Shown here: one piece after another, positions 3,143 through 37,825 of the stretch
How the letters are laid out: every line of letters begins with the position of its first letter
Position numbering within the stretch: the stretch's first letter is position 1
Assembly (NCBI GenBank): GCA_902475645.1
Contig: CABSAH010000001.1
Span: 1 to 37,825 of the forward strand
Origin: an uncultured Christensenellaceae bacterium
Lineage (GTDB): Bacteria; Bacillota; Clostridia; Christensenellales; CAG-138
Length of the DNA stretch: 37,825 nt
Reading direction: 5' to 3'
Program-made: the position numbers and the translations under genes
The notes under the pieces: generated by a model
Databases searched by the model: none
Seen by the model: the letters and a program-made list of their open reading frames with translations, nothing else
Told to the model about the DNA's origin: nothing

Positions 3143-4052
3143 AACTGCCAATATGTCCCGCGAGGACTGGCTCAATCTGCGTCGGCACAGCATAGGCGGC
3201 TCCGATGCGGCTGCAATAGTGGGGCTTAACGAATATGCCTCCCCCTTCTCCGTGTGGGCGGATAAGCGCGGGCTGACGGAGGACAAGCCCGACAATGAGG
3301 CCATGCGGCAGGGGCGCGACCTTGAGGAATATGTGGCGCAGCGGTTTTGCGCTGAGACGGGCAAGCGCGTTAAGAGGTGCAACTACACGCTGTATAACAC
3401 GCTGTATCCGTTCGCCCATGCAAATATTGACCGTAGTATCGTGGGAGAGAATGCGGGGCTTGAATGCAAAACAACTTCCGCTTTGAACATGCGGAAGTTC
3501 AAAAACGGCGAGTTCCCCGCAAATTACTATGTACAATGCATGCATTATATGGCCGTCACGGGCATGGATAAATGGTACTTGGCCGTGCTTGTGCTTAACA
3601 AGGCTTTCATGGTTTTCGAGATAGAGCGGGACGAGGGCGAGATTGCGGCGCTTATGGCCGCCGAGGAGGAATTCTGGGCGCATGTGAATGCGGGCGTTCC
3701 GCCCGCACCTGACGGCAGCAAGGCCACCACCGACGTTATAACCAAACTATACGCGGAAGCATATACGGACGATGTTGTCAATTTGGCTGACTGTATGCAA
3801 AATTTCTATGAGCTGAAAGCAATACAGGAGCAAATGAAAACGCTGGAGAGCCGAAAGAACGAGCTGCAAAACGTTATTAAAACGCACATGGGAGCCTCAG
3901 AGCGCGGAGAGTGCGGCGACTTCACCGTTACATGGAAGAATCAGAGGCGCACAAGCTATGATATGGGACGCTTAACGGCTGACTACCCCGACATAGACTT
4001 AGCAGGGTATGCGCGCACTACTCAAACGCGCGTTTTCAAAATAAGCATATAA
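3120..4052 (+). CDS. YqaJ-like viral recombinase-domain exonuclease (PD-(D/E)XK, lambda Exo-like)
   Basis: N-terminal signature REDWLNLRRHSIGGSDAAAIVGLNEYASPFSVWADKRG and the later ECKT motif, both typical of the YqaJ family. Immediately precedes RecT. Confidence 0.85.
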   Translation: MMTMKKIKTANMSREDWLNLRRHSIGGSDAAAIVGLNEYASPFSVWADKRGLTEDKPDNEAMRQGRDLEEYVAQRFCAETGKRVKRCNYTLYNTLYPFAHANIDRSIVGENAGLECKTTSALNMRKFKNGEFPANYYVQCMHYMAVTGMDKWYLAVLVLNKAFMVFEIERDEGEIAALMAAEEEFWAHVNAGVPPAPDGSKATTDVITKLYAEAYTDDVVNLADCMQNFYELKAIQEQMKTLESRKNELQNVIKTHMGASERGECGDFTVTWKNQRRTSYDMGRLTADYPDIDLAGYARTTQTRVFKISI

Positions 4053-34135: not shown

Positions 34136-34372
34136 GTGGACAAAAAGACCTTGCAGACCCTTTCCCGCGCGGAATGGGAAGGGATTATCTATCAGCGGAT
34201 TTTTAGTGAGCGCGACCGCTGGCTTGTGGCGCGTCACCTGCTGGATGGTGTGCCTTATGACAGGCTTACAGCGGAGTACCAGGCGCGATATACAGATGCG
34301 CCGCTGGAGTATGACCAAATCCGCCGCCGATATAGGGCAGCGGAAAAGACAATAATAAAATATGCCCCCTGA
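34136..34372 (+). CDS. Small sigma-region-4-like HTH protein (78 aa)
   Basis: GTG start with a weak RBS. IFSERDRWLVARHLLDGVPYDRLTAEY resembles a region-4 HTH. This is the last + strand gene before a strong terminator. Confidence 0.5.
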   Translation: MDKKTLQTLSRAEWEGIIYQRIFSERDRWLVARHLLDGVPYDRLTAEYQARYTDAPLEYDQIRRRYRAAEKTIIKYAP

Positions 34373-34393
34373 TGGGGGCTTTTTTGCTTTTTT
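34364..34393 (+). terminator. Rho-independent terminator ending the late operon
   Basis: GCCCCC-TGAT-GGGGGC followed by TTTTTTGCTTTTTT. The stop codon sits in the loop. Confidence 0.75.
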
Positions 34394-34463
34394 GGGATTT
34401 AGTAAATCTCAACACCCAGCTTGGCGGCGGCGGCCTTCATAAGGCGCATTCATCAGCAATTTT

Positions 34464-35033
34464 TTATGCCTCGTCAATTCTGCGCGCCGCCTCAGCTCCA
34501 AGGCGGTCTTTATAGTCCTCATAGCCCCAGTATACTTCATATGGGAATTCACTCCGCTCAAATATAACAGCTTCAGGATGCCTTTCCCGATATCTCGATG
34601 TAGGGCTGGTATTGCTGGGGAATATCCAACCTGGGTTACAGTACCATTCCTCAACCGCCGCATAATAATGGAACCGGAAGTCGGGTTCTACCACATCATC
34701 CTCCTCTCGCTCTAAGACATAATATGTTTTACAAAAAACAGCATGGCACGCGATTAACTCATTGCACTCCATTATTTCTTCAAAGCAGCGTGCATTGGCA
34801 TCTTTACGAAAAGCCACACGAGAGTCAAACTTTATTTTATCGCAATGAGTATGTAGCCCGCAAGCACCTATGTAGTCAGCAGTGCATGTGCGTGGATATA
34901 ACCGCTCAAATTCCGGCAATACATCAATTGGTTTCCACCCTGCCGGAATCTGTTTAACGTCGGTTATAAAGGGTACGTCAGTAGGGCATTCTTCAACTGT
35001 GAGATACACACCAAGGTCATAATATCGTTCCAT
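34464..35033 (-). CDS. Hypothetical Cys/His-rich acidic protein (189 aa), cargo gene 1
   Basis: RBS AAGGAG 7 nt upstream. Driven by consensus promoter copy A. I recognise no family. Confidence 0.65.
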   Translation of the reverse strand: MERYYDLGVYLTVEECPTDVPFITDVKQIPAGWKPIDVLPEFERLYPRTCTADYIGACGLHTHCDKIKFDSRVAFRKDANARCFEEIMECNELIACHAVFCKTYYVLEREEDDVVEPDFRFHYYAAVEEWYCNPGWIFPSNTSPTSRYRERHPEAVIFERSEFPYEVYWGYEDYKDRLGAEAARRIDEA

Positions 35034-35079
35034 TTTCTAACTCCTTTCGGGGTTTTACCCCTTGCTTTATCATGGCTCT

Positions 35080-35108
35080 ATTATATACTATTCCGGAATA
35101 GATGTCAA
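35080..35108 (-). promoter_or_regulatory. Consensus promoter copy A: TTGACA-N17-TATAAT with the palindrome CTATTCCGGAATAG in the spacer
   Basis: On the minus strand, -35 is at 35108-35103 and -10 at 35085-35080. The operator-like palindrome is at 35088-35101. An AT-rich 10-bp-stem palindrome lies at 35112-35135 just upstream. Confidence 0.7.
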
Positions 35109-35136
35109 TAGTTTTTCTAAACTTTTTTAGAAAAAA

Positions 35137-35328
35137 TTATTCCCCGCGCTGCATGGCATTGTCGATGATGCGGTTTATAAACTCGGTCATGCTCTCCCCC
35201 TTTTTTGCCGCATATTCTTTTATGAGCTGTTTTTTGCCCTGCGGCACAAATACATCGATTCTATCCATAGATGCGCGGTAAGCATCATAATATTTTTTGT
35301 TGCTTTTGTACTTGGCGTTTTTCTCCAT
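35137..35328 (-). CDS. Ribbon-helix-helix (Arc/CopG-like) DNA-binding protein
   Basis: RIDVFVPQGKKQLIKEYAAKKGESMTEFINRIIDNAM fits a beta-strand, helix, helix RHH layout. 63 aa. Confidence 0.7.
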   Translation of the reverse strand: MEKNAKYKSNKKYYDAYRASMDRIDVFVPQGKKQLIKEYAAKKGESMTEFINRIIDNAMQRGE

Positions 35329-35335
35329 CTTGTGC

Positions 35336-35365
35336 TTGACAATCCTCGCTTTCGTGTGATAGTAT
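35336..35365 (+). promoter_or_regulatory. Candidate promoter for the mini-CRISPR array (TTGACA-N18-TAGTAT with a TG extended -10)
   Basis: TTGACA at 35336-35341, TG at 35357-35358 and TAGTAT at 35360-35365. The predicted transcription start is around 35372, at the left arm of the flanking inverted repeat. Confidence 0.5.
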
Positions 35366-35384
35366 AGGTCAAGAAGTAATTCCC

Positions 35385-35474
35385 GTGTTCCCCGCGTAAG
35401 CGGGGGTGACTCTTGAGCTCATCGTAGAGGCGGTCAAAGAATACTGTGTTCCCCGCGTAAGCGGGGGTGGCCTA
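35385..35474 (+). CRISPR. Cas-less mini-CRISPR array: two type I-E-like 29-nt repeats and one 32-nt spacer
   Basis: GTGTTCCCCGCGTAAGCGGGGGTG is identical at 35385 and 35446, a 61-nt period equal to 29+32. The stem CCCCGC/GCGGGG with a 4-nt loop and a GTGA... 3' handle resembles type I-E repeats (compare E. coli GTGTTCCCCGCGCCAGCGGGGATAAACCG). The spacer is TGAGCTCATCGTAGAGGCGGTCAAAGAATACT. The 3' end of repeat 2 is degenerate. Confidence 0.7.
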
Positions 35475-35506
35475 GACTAAAGCTAATGCTCTGTCATGGC
35501 AATTTG

Positions 35507-35526
35507 GGGAATTACTTCTTTTTTTT
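35507..35526 (+). terminator. Right arm of the 14-bp inverted repeat plus a T-tract closing the mini-array transcript
   Basis: GGGAATTACTTCTT (35507-35520) is the reverse complement of AAGAAGTAATTCCC (35371-35384). It runs straight into further Ts to 35526. Confidence 0.45.
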
Positions 35527-35530
35527 GTAC

Positions 35531-36331
35531 TTAGTCCTGGTCGAACCGGAATTTCAGCCATCCCTCGGGGATGCCGTTCTCGCTTGCTTGGCTCAGTATC
35601 TCGGCCTTTAGTTCGTCGTAAGCTTCACGGCTTTCGGGAGCCTTCTTTTTGCTCTTGACCTCGGCGTATAGCTCGATGTCGTTTATCTCGACCATCATCC
35701 AGTCTACACCGTGCGTCCCGTATCGGCTTTCGCCGGATTGATATTCCACCTCATACGGCTCACAAAAATTACACACGCAGTTGCCTTCCTTGTCGTCCCA
35801 CATTTCTCGGTAGAGGTAAAAATATTTCCCACAAACAGCACATTTGCAGTAGCATGCTGCTCGGGCGTGGTCAGCATTGAAAAATATCTTGCCGTCCGCT
35901 GCCGTAATCATTCCATCTTCTTCCCCTGCGTGAATCTCTACGCCCCAAGTTTCCGCTTTCTTTATGGTTTCTTCATCGAAGCAGATAGGGTCGAATCTGG
36001 CTTTTTTCTTGAGAAATTCCGCTAATGCTACATAAAAGCAGGTGCCGAGGTCGCCGTATTCGCCGCAATAATCGCCACAATTTAACCCTAACTCTTCGCA
36101 CAAATCTTCGTACATATCATCGTCCCCGCCTTCATCGTAATTAACGATTGCGTCAAGCAGCTCTTCGGCTTCGGGATATTTTATACGTACAAAATCGTCC
36201 GCAGAAGCCTCCTCGTCGCCATACCATTCAGCTTCCAGTAGCTTATCGAGTATGTAATGCGGAATCAAACCTGCGCCGTACTTTTCGCGCGCCTTCGTGC
36301 CTTCGATTGCCCTGTAATAATAGTTCATCAT
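35531..36331 (-). CDS. Hypothetical highly acidic protein with a C-terminal Cys cluster (266 aa), cargo gene 2
   Basis: RBS AAAGGAG. D/E-rich N-terminal half (DEGGDDDMYEDLCEELG). CYCKCAVCGKYF...CVCNFCEPYE zinc-ribbon-like cluster. Driven by promoter copy B. Confidence 0.7.
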   Translation of the reverse strand: MMNYYYRAIEGTKAREKYGAGLIPHYILDKLLEAEWYGDEEASADDFVRIKYPEAEELLDAIVNYDEGGDDDMYEDLCEELGLNCGDYCGEYGDLGTCFYVALAEFLKKKARFDPICFDEETIKKAETWGVEIHAGEEDGMITAADGKIFFNADHARAACYCKCAVCGKYFYLYREMWDDKEGNCVCNFCEPYEVEYQSGESRYGTHGVDWMMVEINDIELYAEVKSKKKAPESREAYDELKAEILSQASENGIPEGWLKFRFDQD

Positions 36332-36376
36332 TTCTAACTCCTTTCGGGCTTTGCCCTTGCTTTACTTGATGGTCTT

Positions 36377-36405
36377 ATTATATACTATTCCGGAATAGTT
36401 GTCAA
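36377..36405 (-). promoter_or_regulatory. Consensus promoter copy B: TTGACA-N17-TATAAT with the palindrome CTATTCCGGAATAG in the spacer
   Basis: On the minus strand, -35 is at 36405-36400 and -10 at 36382-36377. The palindrome is at 36385-36398 and the AT-rich palindrome at 36409-36432. It is part of a ~108-bp direct repeat with 35031-35139. Confidence 0.7.
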
Positions 36406-36448
36406 GGGTTTTTCTAAACTTTTTTAGAAAAAATTTATGCCCGTAAAT

Positions 36449-36493
36449 GCCCTGCAAATGCCCGCTGTGCGCACTCAAAGCAGGGCTTTTTTT
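36449..36493 (+). terminator. Orphan + strand terminator-like structure (GCCCTGC...GCAGGGC plus T7)
   Basis: 7-bp stem enclosing a 24-nt loop that contains the GTGCGCAC palindrome, followed by TTTTTTT. No + strand gene lies upstream of it. Confidence 0.45.
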
Positions 36494-36549
36494 ATGCGAA
36501 AATCAGGGTATGATAGCTATCTAAATATCATTAAAAGGAGATACTAAAA

Positions 36550-36987
36550 ATGGCAGAATTTGCATCAAGGGGAGTAGCTAATACCGGGCTTGGCTTTGGC
36601 ATAGCCGGAACCGCAATTAGCCTGCTTGACGGTCTTAGCGGCCTGATGGCCAATCGCCGCAACAGCGACGATGCCCCCGTGAGCCGCTATGAGCTATCGC
36701 TTGTCCAGGAAAACGCGATTCTCAAGGCACAGGCGGACGTGGACAAGAAGCTTGTCGAGGTCTACGAGGTTATAAACGACAAGGCCAACGCAAACCGCGA
36801 GCGCTTCACGGCCTTCGAGAAGGAGCAGCTTGTATATAACGGCGTGAACTCCGCGACAATCGGCTGCTTGCAGCAGCAGGTCAACGCCCTGCTGGGTATG
36901 ACTAAGATGGTCATACCTAACAGCTCCGTCTGCCCCGGTTGGGGCGAGGCTAAAGTGACCGTATCTACCGGCACGGCCGCGGCCTGA
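36550..36987 (+). CDS. Hypothetical protein with a Gly-rich hydrophobic N-terminus (145 aa)
   Basis: Strong RBS AAAAGGAG. N-terminus GVANTGLGFGIAGTAISLLDGLSGLM, a central coiled-coil-like part, and CPGWG near the C-terminus. Confidence 0.6.
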   Translation: MAEFASRGVANTGLGFGIAGTAISLLDGLSGLMANRRNSDDAPVSRYELSLVQENAILKAQADVDKKLVEVYEVINDKANANRERFTAFEKEQLVYNGVNSATIGCLQQQVNALLGMTKMVIPNSSVCPGWGEAKVTVSTGTAAA

Positions 36988-37000
36988 AAGGCAGCGCCAC

Positions 37001-37339
37001 ATGATAAGCGTACAGCAAGCCGAAAAAGGGCTAATGCGCTACATAGATAGCGAGATAATGCCTAAGCTTACGGGCTGGCGCAAAGTGGGCATGGGGGCGT
37101 ATATCGCCCTCATAGCCCGCAATGGGCGAAGCCTGATAGCAAAGTACAAAGACCACCCCGCCGTTACCGTGCTGAATGTCACGGACGGCGAAAGCATGGA
37201 TATAGACGCGGTATATAATGCCGTCCTGCCATACGCGGACGAGGCAATCAAAATCGACATTCCCGCCATCGGGGAAATATCGTTTAATCGCGACGATATA
37301 GACAAGATGTACCGCTACATGAAAGGAGAAAGCGAATGA
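37001..37339 (+). CDS. Hypothetical protein (112 aa)
   Basis: From the ORF track. Closely follows the previous gene and has an ATGA overlap with the next. Confidence 0.55.
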   Translation: MISVQQAEKGLMRYIDSEIMPKLTGWRKVGMGAYIALIARNGRSLIAKYKDHPAVTVLNVTDGESMDIDAVYNAVLPYADEAIKIDIPAIGEISFNRDDIDKMYRYMKGESE

Positions 37340-37644
37340 CTTTTATAAAAGACCTGTCGGAGCGCATATCCGAGGAGATAGCCGATGCCGAGTACTACGC
37401 CAAGCACGCCCTGAGCGCGAAAGACGAGTACCCCACGGCGGCACAGACTTTTTACACAATCGCGGGGCAGGAGCTAAACCACGCCTCCATGCTACACGAC
37501 CTTGCCACCCGCGCCATTGCGGACTACCGCGCAAAGCACGGCGAACCGCCCGCGGCCATGGAGGCCGTCTACAAATATTTGCACGAGCAGCAGATTGAGC
37601 ATACCGAAGCGGTAAAAAGGTATCTGGATATGTATAAGGCGTAA
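37336..37644 (+). CDS. Small all-helical hypothetical protein (102 aa)
   Basis: RBS AAAGGAGA. Predicted helical bundle with an ExxH-like motif (QELNHA). Family not recognised. Confidence 0.6.
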   Translation: MTFIKDLSERISEEIADAEYYAKHALSAKDEYPTAAQTFYTIAGQELNHASMLHDLATRAIADYRAKHGEPPAAMEAVYKYLHEQQIEHTEAVKRYLDMYKA

Positions 37645-37799
37645 TCGATTTACACGCGGCGCTGGCAACTTTCTGGCAACCTTTTTTTGATAACCGCCTG
37701 CAAGCCGTAAAACAGAAAATGCCTAAATTCCTATGTTTTTTGGCGCATAAATGCGCAAGATTACCCAAGAAAGATAGGTAGCTGCCGGATACCAACGAA

Positions 37800-37825
37800 A
37801 AGAACAGTCCAAACGGACTGTTCTT
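37800..37825. repeat. Perfect 11-bp inverted repeat AAGAACAGTCC-AAAC-GGACTGTTCTT at the window edge
   Basis: Read from the sequence in the 180-nt non-coding tail of the window. Truncated context. Confidence 0.5.

Follow-up and report, generated by a model that had tools for sequence, protein, structure and literature searches.

A duplicated promoter cassette and its candidate ribbon-helix-helix repressor in the accessory region of a gut Clostridia phage

In phage P22, the ribbon-helix-helix (RHH) protein Arc acts on a palindromic operator between the -35 and -10 elements of the strong promoter Pant, where repression is tight, and it controls the expression of the antirepressor in the immI region. 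Here, we describe a related arrangement in a phage genome on contig CABSAH010000001.1, analyzed over positions 1 to 37,825 (hereafter, the window). A promoter cassette of about 115 nt is present there in two near-identical copies, P1 and P2, before two unrelated cargo genes, and each copy carries a palindrome in the spacer of a perfect promoter. Judging from sequence comparisons, we consider it probable that a small RHH protein encoded between the two copies represses both promoters through this palindrome.

Several described systems combine accessory genes of phages and viruses with dedicated regulation. Aca14 of Pasteurella multocida is an RHH anti-CRISPR-associated (Aca) regulator (Feussner et al., bioRxiv 10.64898/2026.07.27.740549); it has a helical N-terminal extension and binds inverted repeats in two promoters, that of the operon it belongs to and that of a neighbouring anti-defence operon, repressing both (bioRxiv 10.64898/2026.07.27.740549). 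Anti-CRISPR (acr)-aca operons of the helix-turn-helix (HTH) type are known for Aca1, Aca2, Aca10 and others (PMC6765145, PMC9410906, PMC8633003). Consensus regulatory sequences stand before anti-defence genes in archaeal viruses (PMC11065993), promoter-driven CRISPR repeats are known as RNA anti-CRISPRs (Racr) and are reported to cluster with acr genes (PMC10651486), and viral regulators resembling CRISPR RNA (crRNA), named Cracr, have been described (bioRxiv 10.1101/2024.10.29.618823).

The duplicated cassette and its relatives

Coordinates are those of the whole window, in which the region 34400-37825 was read directly and with a repeat finder. Cassette copy 1 (P1; 35031..35146, minus strand) drives the open reading frame (ORF) ORF189, and copy 2 (P2; 36329..36443, minus strand) drives ORF266 and, by presumed read-through, the RHH gene. 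A global alignment of the two copies has 103 identical positions over 116 and 115 nt (89%), which bears out the near-identical direct repeats, and their positions, that had been reported in a sequence-only reading of this DNA. The 100-nt flanks on each side of the cassettes align at background level (55-60%), and the repeat is therefore restricted to the cassette, with no longer duplication around it. The idea that it belongs to a longer duplicated mobile element, which the same reading had raised against its own proposal, was rejected because the similarity stops at the cassette borders.

Read 5' to 3' on the minus strand, each copy consists of an AT palindrome, TTGACA, a 17-nt spacer, TATAAT, a leader, AAGGAG and ATG. 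In a promoter scan, both copies match TTGACA-N17-TATAAT at 12 of the 12 positions on the minus strand (35108..35080 and 36405..36377), with the -35 hexamer at 35103-35108 in P1 and 36400-36405 in P2 and the -10 hexamer at 35080-35085 and 36377-36382, respectively. No other TTGACA-N16-18-TATAAT site exists in the window of 37.8 kb, where shuffled sequences lead one to expect 0.01, and the perfect promoters claimed earlier are thus confirmed. The candidate operator lies inside the spacer. The perfect 14-bp palindrome that had been noticed there is present in both copies, as CTATTCCGGAATAG in P1 (35088-35101) and extended to 16 bp, ACTATTCCGGAATAGT, in P2 (36384-36399), and its core TATTCCGGAATA has no exact match in the window outside these two sites. 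The remaining parts were also found where they had been placed: a 24-nt AT-only palindrome upstream of the -35 hexamer (TTTTTCTAAA-N4-TTTAGAAAAA, with the minus-strand loop AAAG; 35112-35135 and 36409-36432), a leader of about 45 nt with a GC hairpin of 4 to 5 bp (in plus-strand spelling GGGGTTTTACCCC at 35049-35061, folding at -7.6 kcal/mol, in P1 and GGGCTTTGCCC at 36346-36356, folding at -6.0 kcal/mol, in P2), the ribosome-binding site (RBS) AAGGAG (35041-35046 and 36338-36343, minus strand) and the ATG start codon (35031-35033 and 36329-36331, minus strand).

The cassette is not confined to this genome. Three copies of a related cassette occur in MT835524 (locus L001), and a search of IMG/VR with the conserved -10/leader/RBS part, written as TATAATN{8,14}TAAAGCAAGGGN{10,17}GGAGTTA, retrieved 30 loci on about 25 contigs. 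In total, the cassette chassis is present in about 27 related gut phage contigs at 1 to 3 copies per genome, mostly two or three; wherever the whole region is present there are 2 to 3 cassettes, and at least one contig, L010, has a single copy. Across 56 aligned copies, the chassis is constant and consists of an AT-rich tract, the -35 element, a spacer of 17 to 18 nt, TATAAT, GATAAAGCAAGG, a GC hairpin and GAAGGGAGTTAAAAATG. Its operators fall into three mutually exclusive designs. Class C1, in the window and in the IMG/VR contig _123769, has the CCGG-centred spacer palindrome CTATWCCGGWATAG. Class C2, in 10 contigs, has the spacer palindrome TAGGTATATACCTA and a -35 element of TTGACG. Class C3, in 15 contigs including MT835524, has a TTTGTCA-N10/11-TGACAAA inverted repeat that overlaps the -35 element, with a variable spacer. 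All three promoters of _123769 are C1. The exact C1 operator together with the -10 element had no match in IMG/VR; a degenerate C1 pattern recovered only contig _123769 from IMG/VR and, from the JGI metagenomes, four unrelated chance matches, all without the cassette backbone. The single cassette of L010 (IMGVR_UViG_3300045988_104938, at about 520) belongs to class C3 and has a mutated -35 element, CTGACA. The sequence-only reading had suggested a search for the cassette before other cargo genes in related phages. In our reading, the two cassettes are copies of a portable expression module of a group of temperate gut Clostridia siphophages.

Two parts of the cassette do not behave as regulator-specific elements. 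The AT palindrome lies at -38 to -62, in the position of an UP element, and AT-rich tracts or A-tracts occupy this position in all operator classes. The window-type AT palindrome is absent from _123769, the second genome with the RHH protein and the CCGG palindrome; it thus does not track the regulator and is probably not the RHH operator, a role for which it had also been considered. It is probably an UP-like element. A function as a terminator was rejected, since the stem is AU-only (-6 kcal/mol) and is also present where no gene precedes. The GC hairpin adjoins the RBS in all classes and is supported by pairing in 94.8% of cells on 17 distinct leaders, with one pair that switches between G-C and C-G in 6 sequences and a C-G to U-A change in P1. 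On an unrelated, integrase-bearing contig (L053 4939-5003), a homologue of ORF266 with 49% identity has kept the hairpin and RBS, GGGCGAAGCCCGAAAGGAGTTAGAAAATG, and no promoter was found upstream of it, which shows that the hairpin-RBS unit can move with a gene independently of the promoter. Since the hairpin occurs in all classes and is retained without a promoter in L053, we assign it a general role in the leader or in translation initiation, perhaps as a 5' stabilizer. The earlier description of a hairpin in both copies stands in this respect, but the hairpin is common to all regulator classes and not specific to one regulator.

The candidate repressor and its predicted operator

The ORFs behind every cassette were called and clustered, and candidate regulators were sought by tblastn. 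Each operator class comes with its own regulator. The two C1 genomes have the RHH protein, which in _123769 is 61 aa long and 65% identical to that of the window. A protein of 62 to 64 aa is encoded in all nine C2 loci in which the region is present. For C3, it is a 159-aa protein with a C-terminal HTH_3 domain (HTH159; Pfam, 1.9e-7), found in 14 contigs; all C3 contigs that include the upstream region encode it except L010. No genome among the related contigs combines operator classes, and none pairs a regulator with the operator of another class. The upstream unit of every class closes with the regulator gene, which lies before the final cassette and ends within a few dozen nucleotides of that cassette or inside it. 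In C2, the 64-aa gene overlaps the next promoter (L002 1162-1353 and equivalents), with the TTGACG element contained in its last codons and its TAG stop inside the TAGGTATATACCTA operator. No fold could be assigned to this C2 protein, which is RHH-like by eye only.

Two controls set this linkage apart from its surroundings. The flanking 78-aa protein and the holin are 90 to 97% conserved across all three classes, and the cargo families (acidic proteins of 94 to 97 aa, zinc-ribbon proteins of 139/140 aa and a 243-aa protein) occur behind different operator classes. With constant flanks and shuffled cargo, operator and regulator have stayed linked despite recombination. Upstream of the -10 element, the core hexamers and the spacer palindrome are all that the two C1 genomes share, the upstream tract of _123769 being the C2-type AAAAATATTTTTTCAAAAA and that of the window its own AT palindrome. 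The spacer palindrome is thus the sole class-specific element common to the C1 genomes, and on this basis the specificity of the RHH protein is assigned to the CCGG palindrome.

The same data bear on whether the palindrome is instead bound by another factor, such as a host regulator or the Cro/CI-type protein at 32-244, with the RHH protein being of the antitoxin or partition type. RHH domains do occur in antitoxins and in ParG/CopG, the protein has weak matches to TacA, RelB, ParG and RepB-RCR_reg, and its gene directly precedes ORF189. However, the RHH protein is replaced by the HTH or the 64-aa protein exactly when the operator changes, the conserved flanking proteins do not change with the operator class, and the palindrome occurs nowhere else in the window. 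Moreover, P1 separates the RHH gene from ORF189, and relatives have an acidic 94-aa protein in the position of ORF189. We therefore consider binding by another factor very improbable. The specific proposal of an RHH-ORF189 toxin-antitoxin pair was rejected for the last two reasons and because some relatives have an HTH protein as their regulator.

The RHH protein itself (35137..35328, minus strand) is an Arc-like protein of 63 aa with an N-terminal helical extension, and its stop codon abuts P1. As a single sequence it gives weak matches (RepB-RCR_reg, 8e-4; ParG, 7e-3; a PHROG annotated as Arc-like repressor, 2e-3), and a word-indexed homologue search with it returned only itself. A full HMMER scan gave 270 RHH family representatives, mostly of about 60 to 125 aa, and their alignment has the signature YDRIxxxVPKGKKxxIKxHAxxxGESxNxFINRAIDE. 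Among solved structures, the family profile matches AmrZ (7e-5), Arc (2e-3), ParG, AvtR and CopG, and Pfam assigns Arc to 20 and RHH_5 to 17 of 57 family members. The sequence of Aca14, taken from supplementary Table S2 of bioRxiv 10.64898/2026.07.27.740549, matched the RHH family profile A4 in hhalign (92.5%, E 4.9e-7) over 50 columns that include the N-terminal KKxxxxYxxxxY helix, and BLASTP gave 31% identity over 49 aa (E 0.028). The best PHROG is phrog_13890 for Aca14, for the 63-aa RHH protein of the window (RHH63) and for the 61-aa protein of _123769 (RHH61). The RHH protein of the window is thus a distant relative of Aca14, for which membership in the same superfamily and PHROG is a safer description than orthologue. 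A further relative with 49% identity, annotated as an Arc-like repressor, is encoded next to the integrase in Flavonifractor phage Chenonceau (ON453904; L054 617-700). Ahead of this gene stand ATACTTCCGGTAGTAT, directly adjoining a TATAAT, and two imperfect copies of the site; with its CCGG centre, the palindrome is similar to the operator of the window and may be taken as a further independent hint.

Taken together, the co-occurrence of operator and regulator and the homology to Arc and Aca14 support the central claim of the sequence-only reading, namely, a strong repressible promoter module before two unrelated genes with the RHH protein as its likely repressor. In the circuit that we propose, each cassette would combine an AT-rich, UP-like tract, a full-consensus promoter for the housekeeping sigma factor, a spacer operator of 14 to 16 bp and a hairpin leader with a strong Shine-Dalgarno (SD) sequence. 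Expression of the RHH protein would come from the end of the upstream unit, P2 > ORF266 > RHH, and dimers of the protein would bind the CCGG-centred palindrome and occlude RNA polymerase. If P2 is indeed read through to the RHH gene, the operon that includes the regulator has this inverted repeat in its promoter as the 16-bp palindrome of P2, and the neighbouring operon has it as the 14-bp palindrome of P1. The outcome would be negative feedback on the RHH operon and on the next operon, P1 > ORF189, presumably with a burst of expression on entry, before the RHH protein accumulates, and low levels thereafter.

The mini-array, the cargo and the genomic setting

What the sequence-only reading had overlooked is a plus-strand small-RNA unit with a type I-E CRISPR mini-array in the upstream operon, and the anti-defence-island context that it implies. 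The unit (35336..35528) lies between ORF266 and the RHH gene and is convergent with P2, which means that the RHH gene must be read through it, antisense. Its promoter, with TTGACA at 35336-35341 and the extended -10 element TGATAGTAT ending at 35365 on the plus strand, matches at 10 of the 12 positions (TTGACA-18-TAGTAT with TG). On the same strand, closing-stem arms of 14 nt (35371-35384 and 35507-35520) enclose repeat 1 (35385-35412), a 33-nt spacer, TTGAGCTCATCGTAGAGGCGGTCAAAGAATACT (35413-35445), and repeat 2 (35446-35473), and a run of eight T residues follows (35521-35528). The repeat finder located GTGTTCCCCGCGTAAGCGGGGGTG twice, 61 nt apart, and a genome scan identified it as the first 24 nt of the 28-nt repeat GTGTTCCCCGCGTAAGCGGGGGTGATCC of genuine arrays with a 61-nt period. 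Such arrays were found in a Clostridiales metagenome-assembled genome (MAG), Lachnoanaerobaculum, Bombilactobacillus, an actinomycete MAG and an uncultured bin, and this sequence and period are those of type I-E repeats. The phage repeats have kept the hairpin and GTGA and are altered in the 3' handle part; the 5'-handle part reads GTGACTC and GTGGCCT versus GTGATCC in the array consensus. The RNA of the unit folds far better than shuffled sequences (z = -6.1).

There are no cas genes adjacent to the mini-array, and Rfam gave nothing meaningful in the region and no CRISPR-DR match on the I-E repeats. With two repeats and a 33-nt spacer, the window has a one-spacer mini-array and not a solitary repeat; a single repeat is present in the relatives L001, L006 and L032. 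No target of the 33-nt spacer was found in the window, in all loci or in IMG/VR, and the only match, 8 nt proximal to the protospacer-adjacent motif and inside a solute-binding protein gene in L035, is at chance level. Because no target was found, the roles of a Racr, a Cracr and a genuine crRNA are not separable. The promoter-driven repeat RNA of this locus may be Racr- or crRNA-like, and the mini-array supports the reading of the locus as an anti-CRISPR island. In an unrelated 58-kb phage (L032 840-2101; IMGVR_UViG_3300045988_109750), a solitary I-E repeat lies beside an ORF227-family gene in divergent orientation, and after that gene comes a homologue of HTH159 with 55% identity. These three elements thus recur together in a different phage background, within the tail-gene region.

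In L001 (4681-4812) and L006 (673-800), the single I-E repeat has a promoter, TTGACT...TGGTACTAT, a stem and two flanking copies of AGAAGCGCTTCT, and in L018 (11214-11270) and L028 (about 3620-3677, minus strand) the site is empty, with one AGAAGCGCTTCT copy and a T-run. This looks like gain or loss of the I-E repeat by recombination between AGAAGCGCTTCT palindromes. One may then ask whether the repeated cassettes are themselves mainly recombination substrates for cassette swapping, with the promoter being secondary and the palindromes serving as recombination or nicking sites. The apparent deletion between two AGAAGCGCTTCT copies at the empty sites would fit this, as would the variation in cassette number from 1 to 3, the shuffling of cargo between cassettes and operator classes and the ORF266 homologue elsewhere that keeps only the hairpin and RBS part. 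Homology, however, needs neither perfect hexamers at 17 nt nor a well-placed SD sequence nor concordance between operator and regulator, and a role in recombination can coexist with a regulatory one without replacing it. As the main function of the repeats, we regard it as very improbable.

The first cargo gene, ORF266 (35531..36331, minus strand), encodes a protein whose N-terminal 90 aa or so correspond to the acidic 94- to 97-aa family encoded behind the last cassette of almost every related phage; its C-terminal half is Cys-rich. The second, ORF189 (34464..35033, minus strand), has no family match; homologues with about 68% identity occur in other mobile elements behind different promoters, without this cassette, and an AlphaFold2 (AF2) model from 6 sequences was unusable (predicted local distance difference test [pLDDT] score of 34). 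No gene of the operons is a known or demonstrated anti-CRISPR gene according to Pfam, PHROGs, PADLOC and NCBIfam, a search that did not include an Acr-dedicated database. The cargo may nevertheless be anti-defence, and then probably an anti-CRISPR island of type I-E, an assignment made from context only and for now tentative.

The genomic setting can be read in more than one way. The window is a siphophage-type genome with early genes at its left end (a Cro-like HTH protein, a YqaJ-type exonuclease, RecT and a single-stranded DNA-binding protein), followed by structural genes and then by an endolysin with NlpC/P60 and PG_binding domains and a holin just upstream of the cassette locus. The large terminase has its nearest relatives in Clostridioides difficile phages (44-47%), and the nearest genome is MT835524, from human faeces, with 88% identity over the structural genes; there, the homologous region is followed by the integrase. 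The cassettes thus lie between the lysis and integration modules, in an accessory region that is variable. This invites the explanation that the same circuit serves other biology, the cargo being morons for lysogenic conversion or superinfection exclusion that are expressed from the prophage at a level set by the RHH protein, with the repeats incidental or used in competition between phages. A position between the lysis genes and, in L001, the integrase is a classic moron site, the locus lies on the strand opposite the late genes with its own terminator and a GC content of 45% versus 52%, and no cargo gene matches a known anti-defence protein. Against this stand the membership of the regulator in the Aca14/phrog_13890 family, the promoter-driven solitary I-E repeats, which several phages have embedded in this locus and which appear again with the same cargo and regulator elsewhere, and the nature of the cargo, a large part of which is small, acidic and hypervariable in the manner typical of anti-defence genes. 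We judge the moron explanation unlikely, although it deserves to be kept in mind.

Between the holin and the cargo lies the plus-strand gene of the 78-aa protein (34136-34372), which has no family match, and GCCCCCTGATGGGGGC (34364..34379), which has a T-run on each strand and is a bidirectional intrinsic terminator, closes both this gene and the minus-strand cargo units. Just upstream of P2, a terminator-like hairpin, GCCCTGC...GCAGGGC followed by T7, lies on the plus strand (36451-36497). No plus-strand gene precedes it, and it may stop antisense or late read-through before the plus-strand genes that start at 36550. The junction beside it, GGGCATTTA..GGGCA, is kept at the first cassette of all related phages. 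No integrase was found in the contig (1-5400 and 37645-37825 considered). In the closest relative, the integrase directly follows the homologue of a 102-aa rubrerythrin-like gene; the window ends in the hairpin AAGAACAGTCC-AAA-CGGACTGTTCTT, and the contig probably breaks off in or close to the integration module.

A more far-reaching joint reading would make the locus a two-layer anti-CRISPR switch and its relatives a source of naturally orthogonal operator/repressor pairs for gut Clostridia. Soon after entry, strong transcription from P2 would make protein effectors and, running antisense through the I-E unit, would disturb the repeat RNA through colliding polymerases and antisense pairing. 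With P2 later shut by the RHH protein, this interference would be lifted and the RNA anti-CRISPR or the crRNA of the mini-array could take over, in a timed hand-over from protein to RNA. We regard this combination as quite unlikely.

Several observations weigh against repression by the RHH protein or against the anti-defence role of the locus. Class C1 consists of two independent genomes and one near-identical contig, L046, and the co-variation, which is found in related phages, amounts to about three module swaps with persistent linkage and not to 27 independent events. HTH159 is absent from the whole 14.9-kb L010 locus, which leaves its cassette an orphan that is apparently unregulated. In L055, a more distant relative of the RHH protein, the repeat is another one and the CCGG palindrome is missing, and the site is thus not family-wide. 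No promoter of its own was found for the RHH gene, so that its transcription is uncertain; the convergent small-RNA unit with its strong hairpins lies between it and ORF266, and its SD-ATG spacing is long (14 nt). A single-sequence AF2 model of the protein was all-helical (pLDDT 68) and did not recover the ribbon, which makes it uninformative. With respect to the cargo, ORF189, ORF266 and the cargo of relatives match no annotated Pfam, PHROG, PADLOC or NCBIfam family. Finally, none of 151 spacers from arrays with the same I-E repeat matches this phage, and they gave no host assignment.

Anti-defence regulation in phages of gut Clostridia is, to our knowledge, almost undescribed, and the locus offers a concrete operator/repressor candidate pair for an Aca14-like RHH protein in this group. 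The cassette is also a search handle, with one DNA pattern leading to about 55 promoter copies before approximately 10 unannotated gene families, which are candidate anti-defence and possibly anti-type I-E genes. The three mutually exclusive pairs on one chassis indicate that regulatory specificity is swapped as a module, and they may serve in the engineering of Bacillota as strong and compact repressible promoters that are probably orthogonal to one another. In the window, protein cargo, an Aca-like repressor and CRISPR-repeat RNA come together within one 2-kb unit.

Comparison with known systems

By analogy with the systems outlined above, the circuit most likely follows acr-aca logic and is an example of a known design rather than a new principle. 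The resemblance to Aca14 extends to the protein, which is small (63 versus 66-67 aa), has an N-terminal helix before the RHH domain and is encoded by the last gene of an operon of the anti-defence type, and to the DNA, where the promoter of the regulator's operon and that of the next operon downstream contain near-identical inverted repeats. In contrast, the identity is only about 26 to 31%, and the RHH protein comes from a gut phage of Bacillota instead of Pseudomonadota. The site here is an unspaced, GC-centred palindrome of 14 to 16 bp in the promoter spacer, whereas that of Aca14 is an AT-rich 8-N4-8 repeat over the -10 element. No known acr gene is present in the operons of the window, and repression is proposed here from sequence alone.

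With the acr-aca operons of the HTH type, the locus shares a strong promoter followed by small accessory genes and then by a predicted autorepressor with inverted repeats in the promoter, and the class C3 relatives even use an HTH_3 protein. The fold in the window is nevertheless RHH, and the leader hairpin is not specific to a regulator, in contrast to the RNA motifs of Aca1 and Aca2. As in P22 Arc and Pant, the candidate operator fills the spacer between the -35 and -10 elements, and the RHH profile matches Arc structures; the targets here are two cargo operons, however, and the operator differs in sequence and length.

The mini-array is similar to Racr and Cracr in that CRISPR repeats are driven by a promoter in a phage accessory locus without cas genes, and real I-E arrays have the same repeat hairpin. 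It differs from Racr in having two repeats and a full 33-nt spacer and in the altered handle part. Like the motif of archaeal viruses, the cassette is one strong-promoter motif that is repeated before many unrelated genes and can be used for gene finding, but that motif is archaeal, with another promoter architecture and other regulators, and here there are three interchangeable operator/regulator versions. What is particular to this case is the combination of an operator that fills the spacer of a perfect promoter, three interchangeable operator/regulator pairs on one chassis and a convergent I-E mini-array inside the operon.

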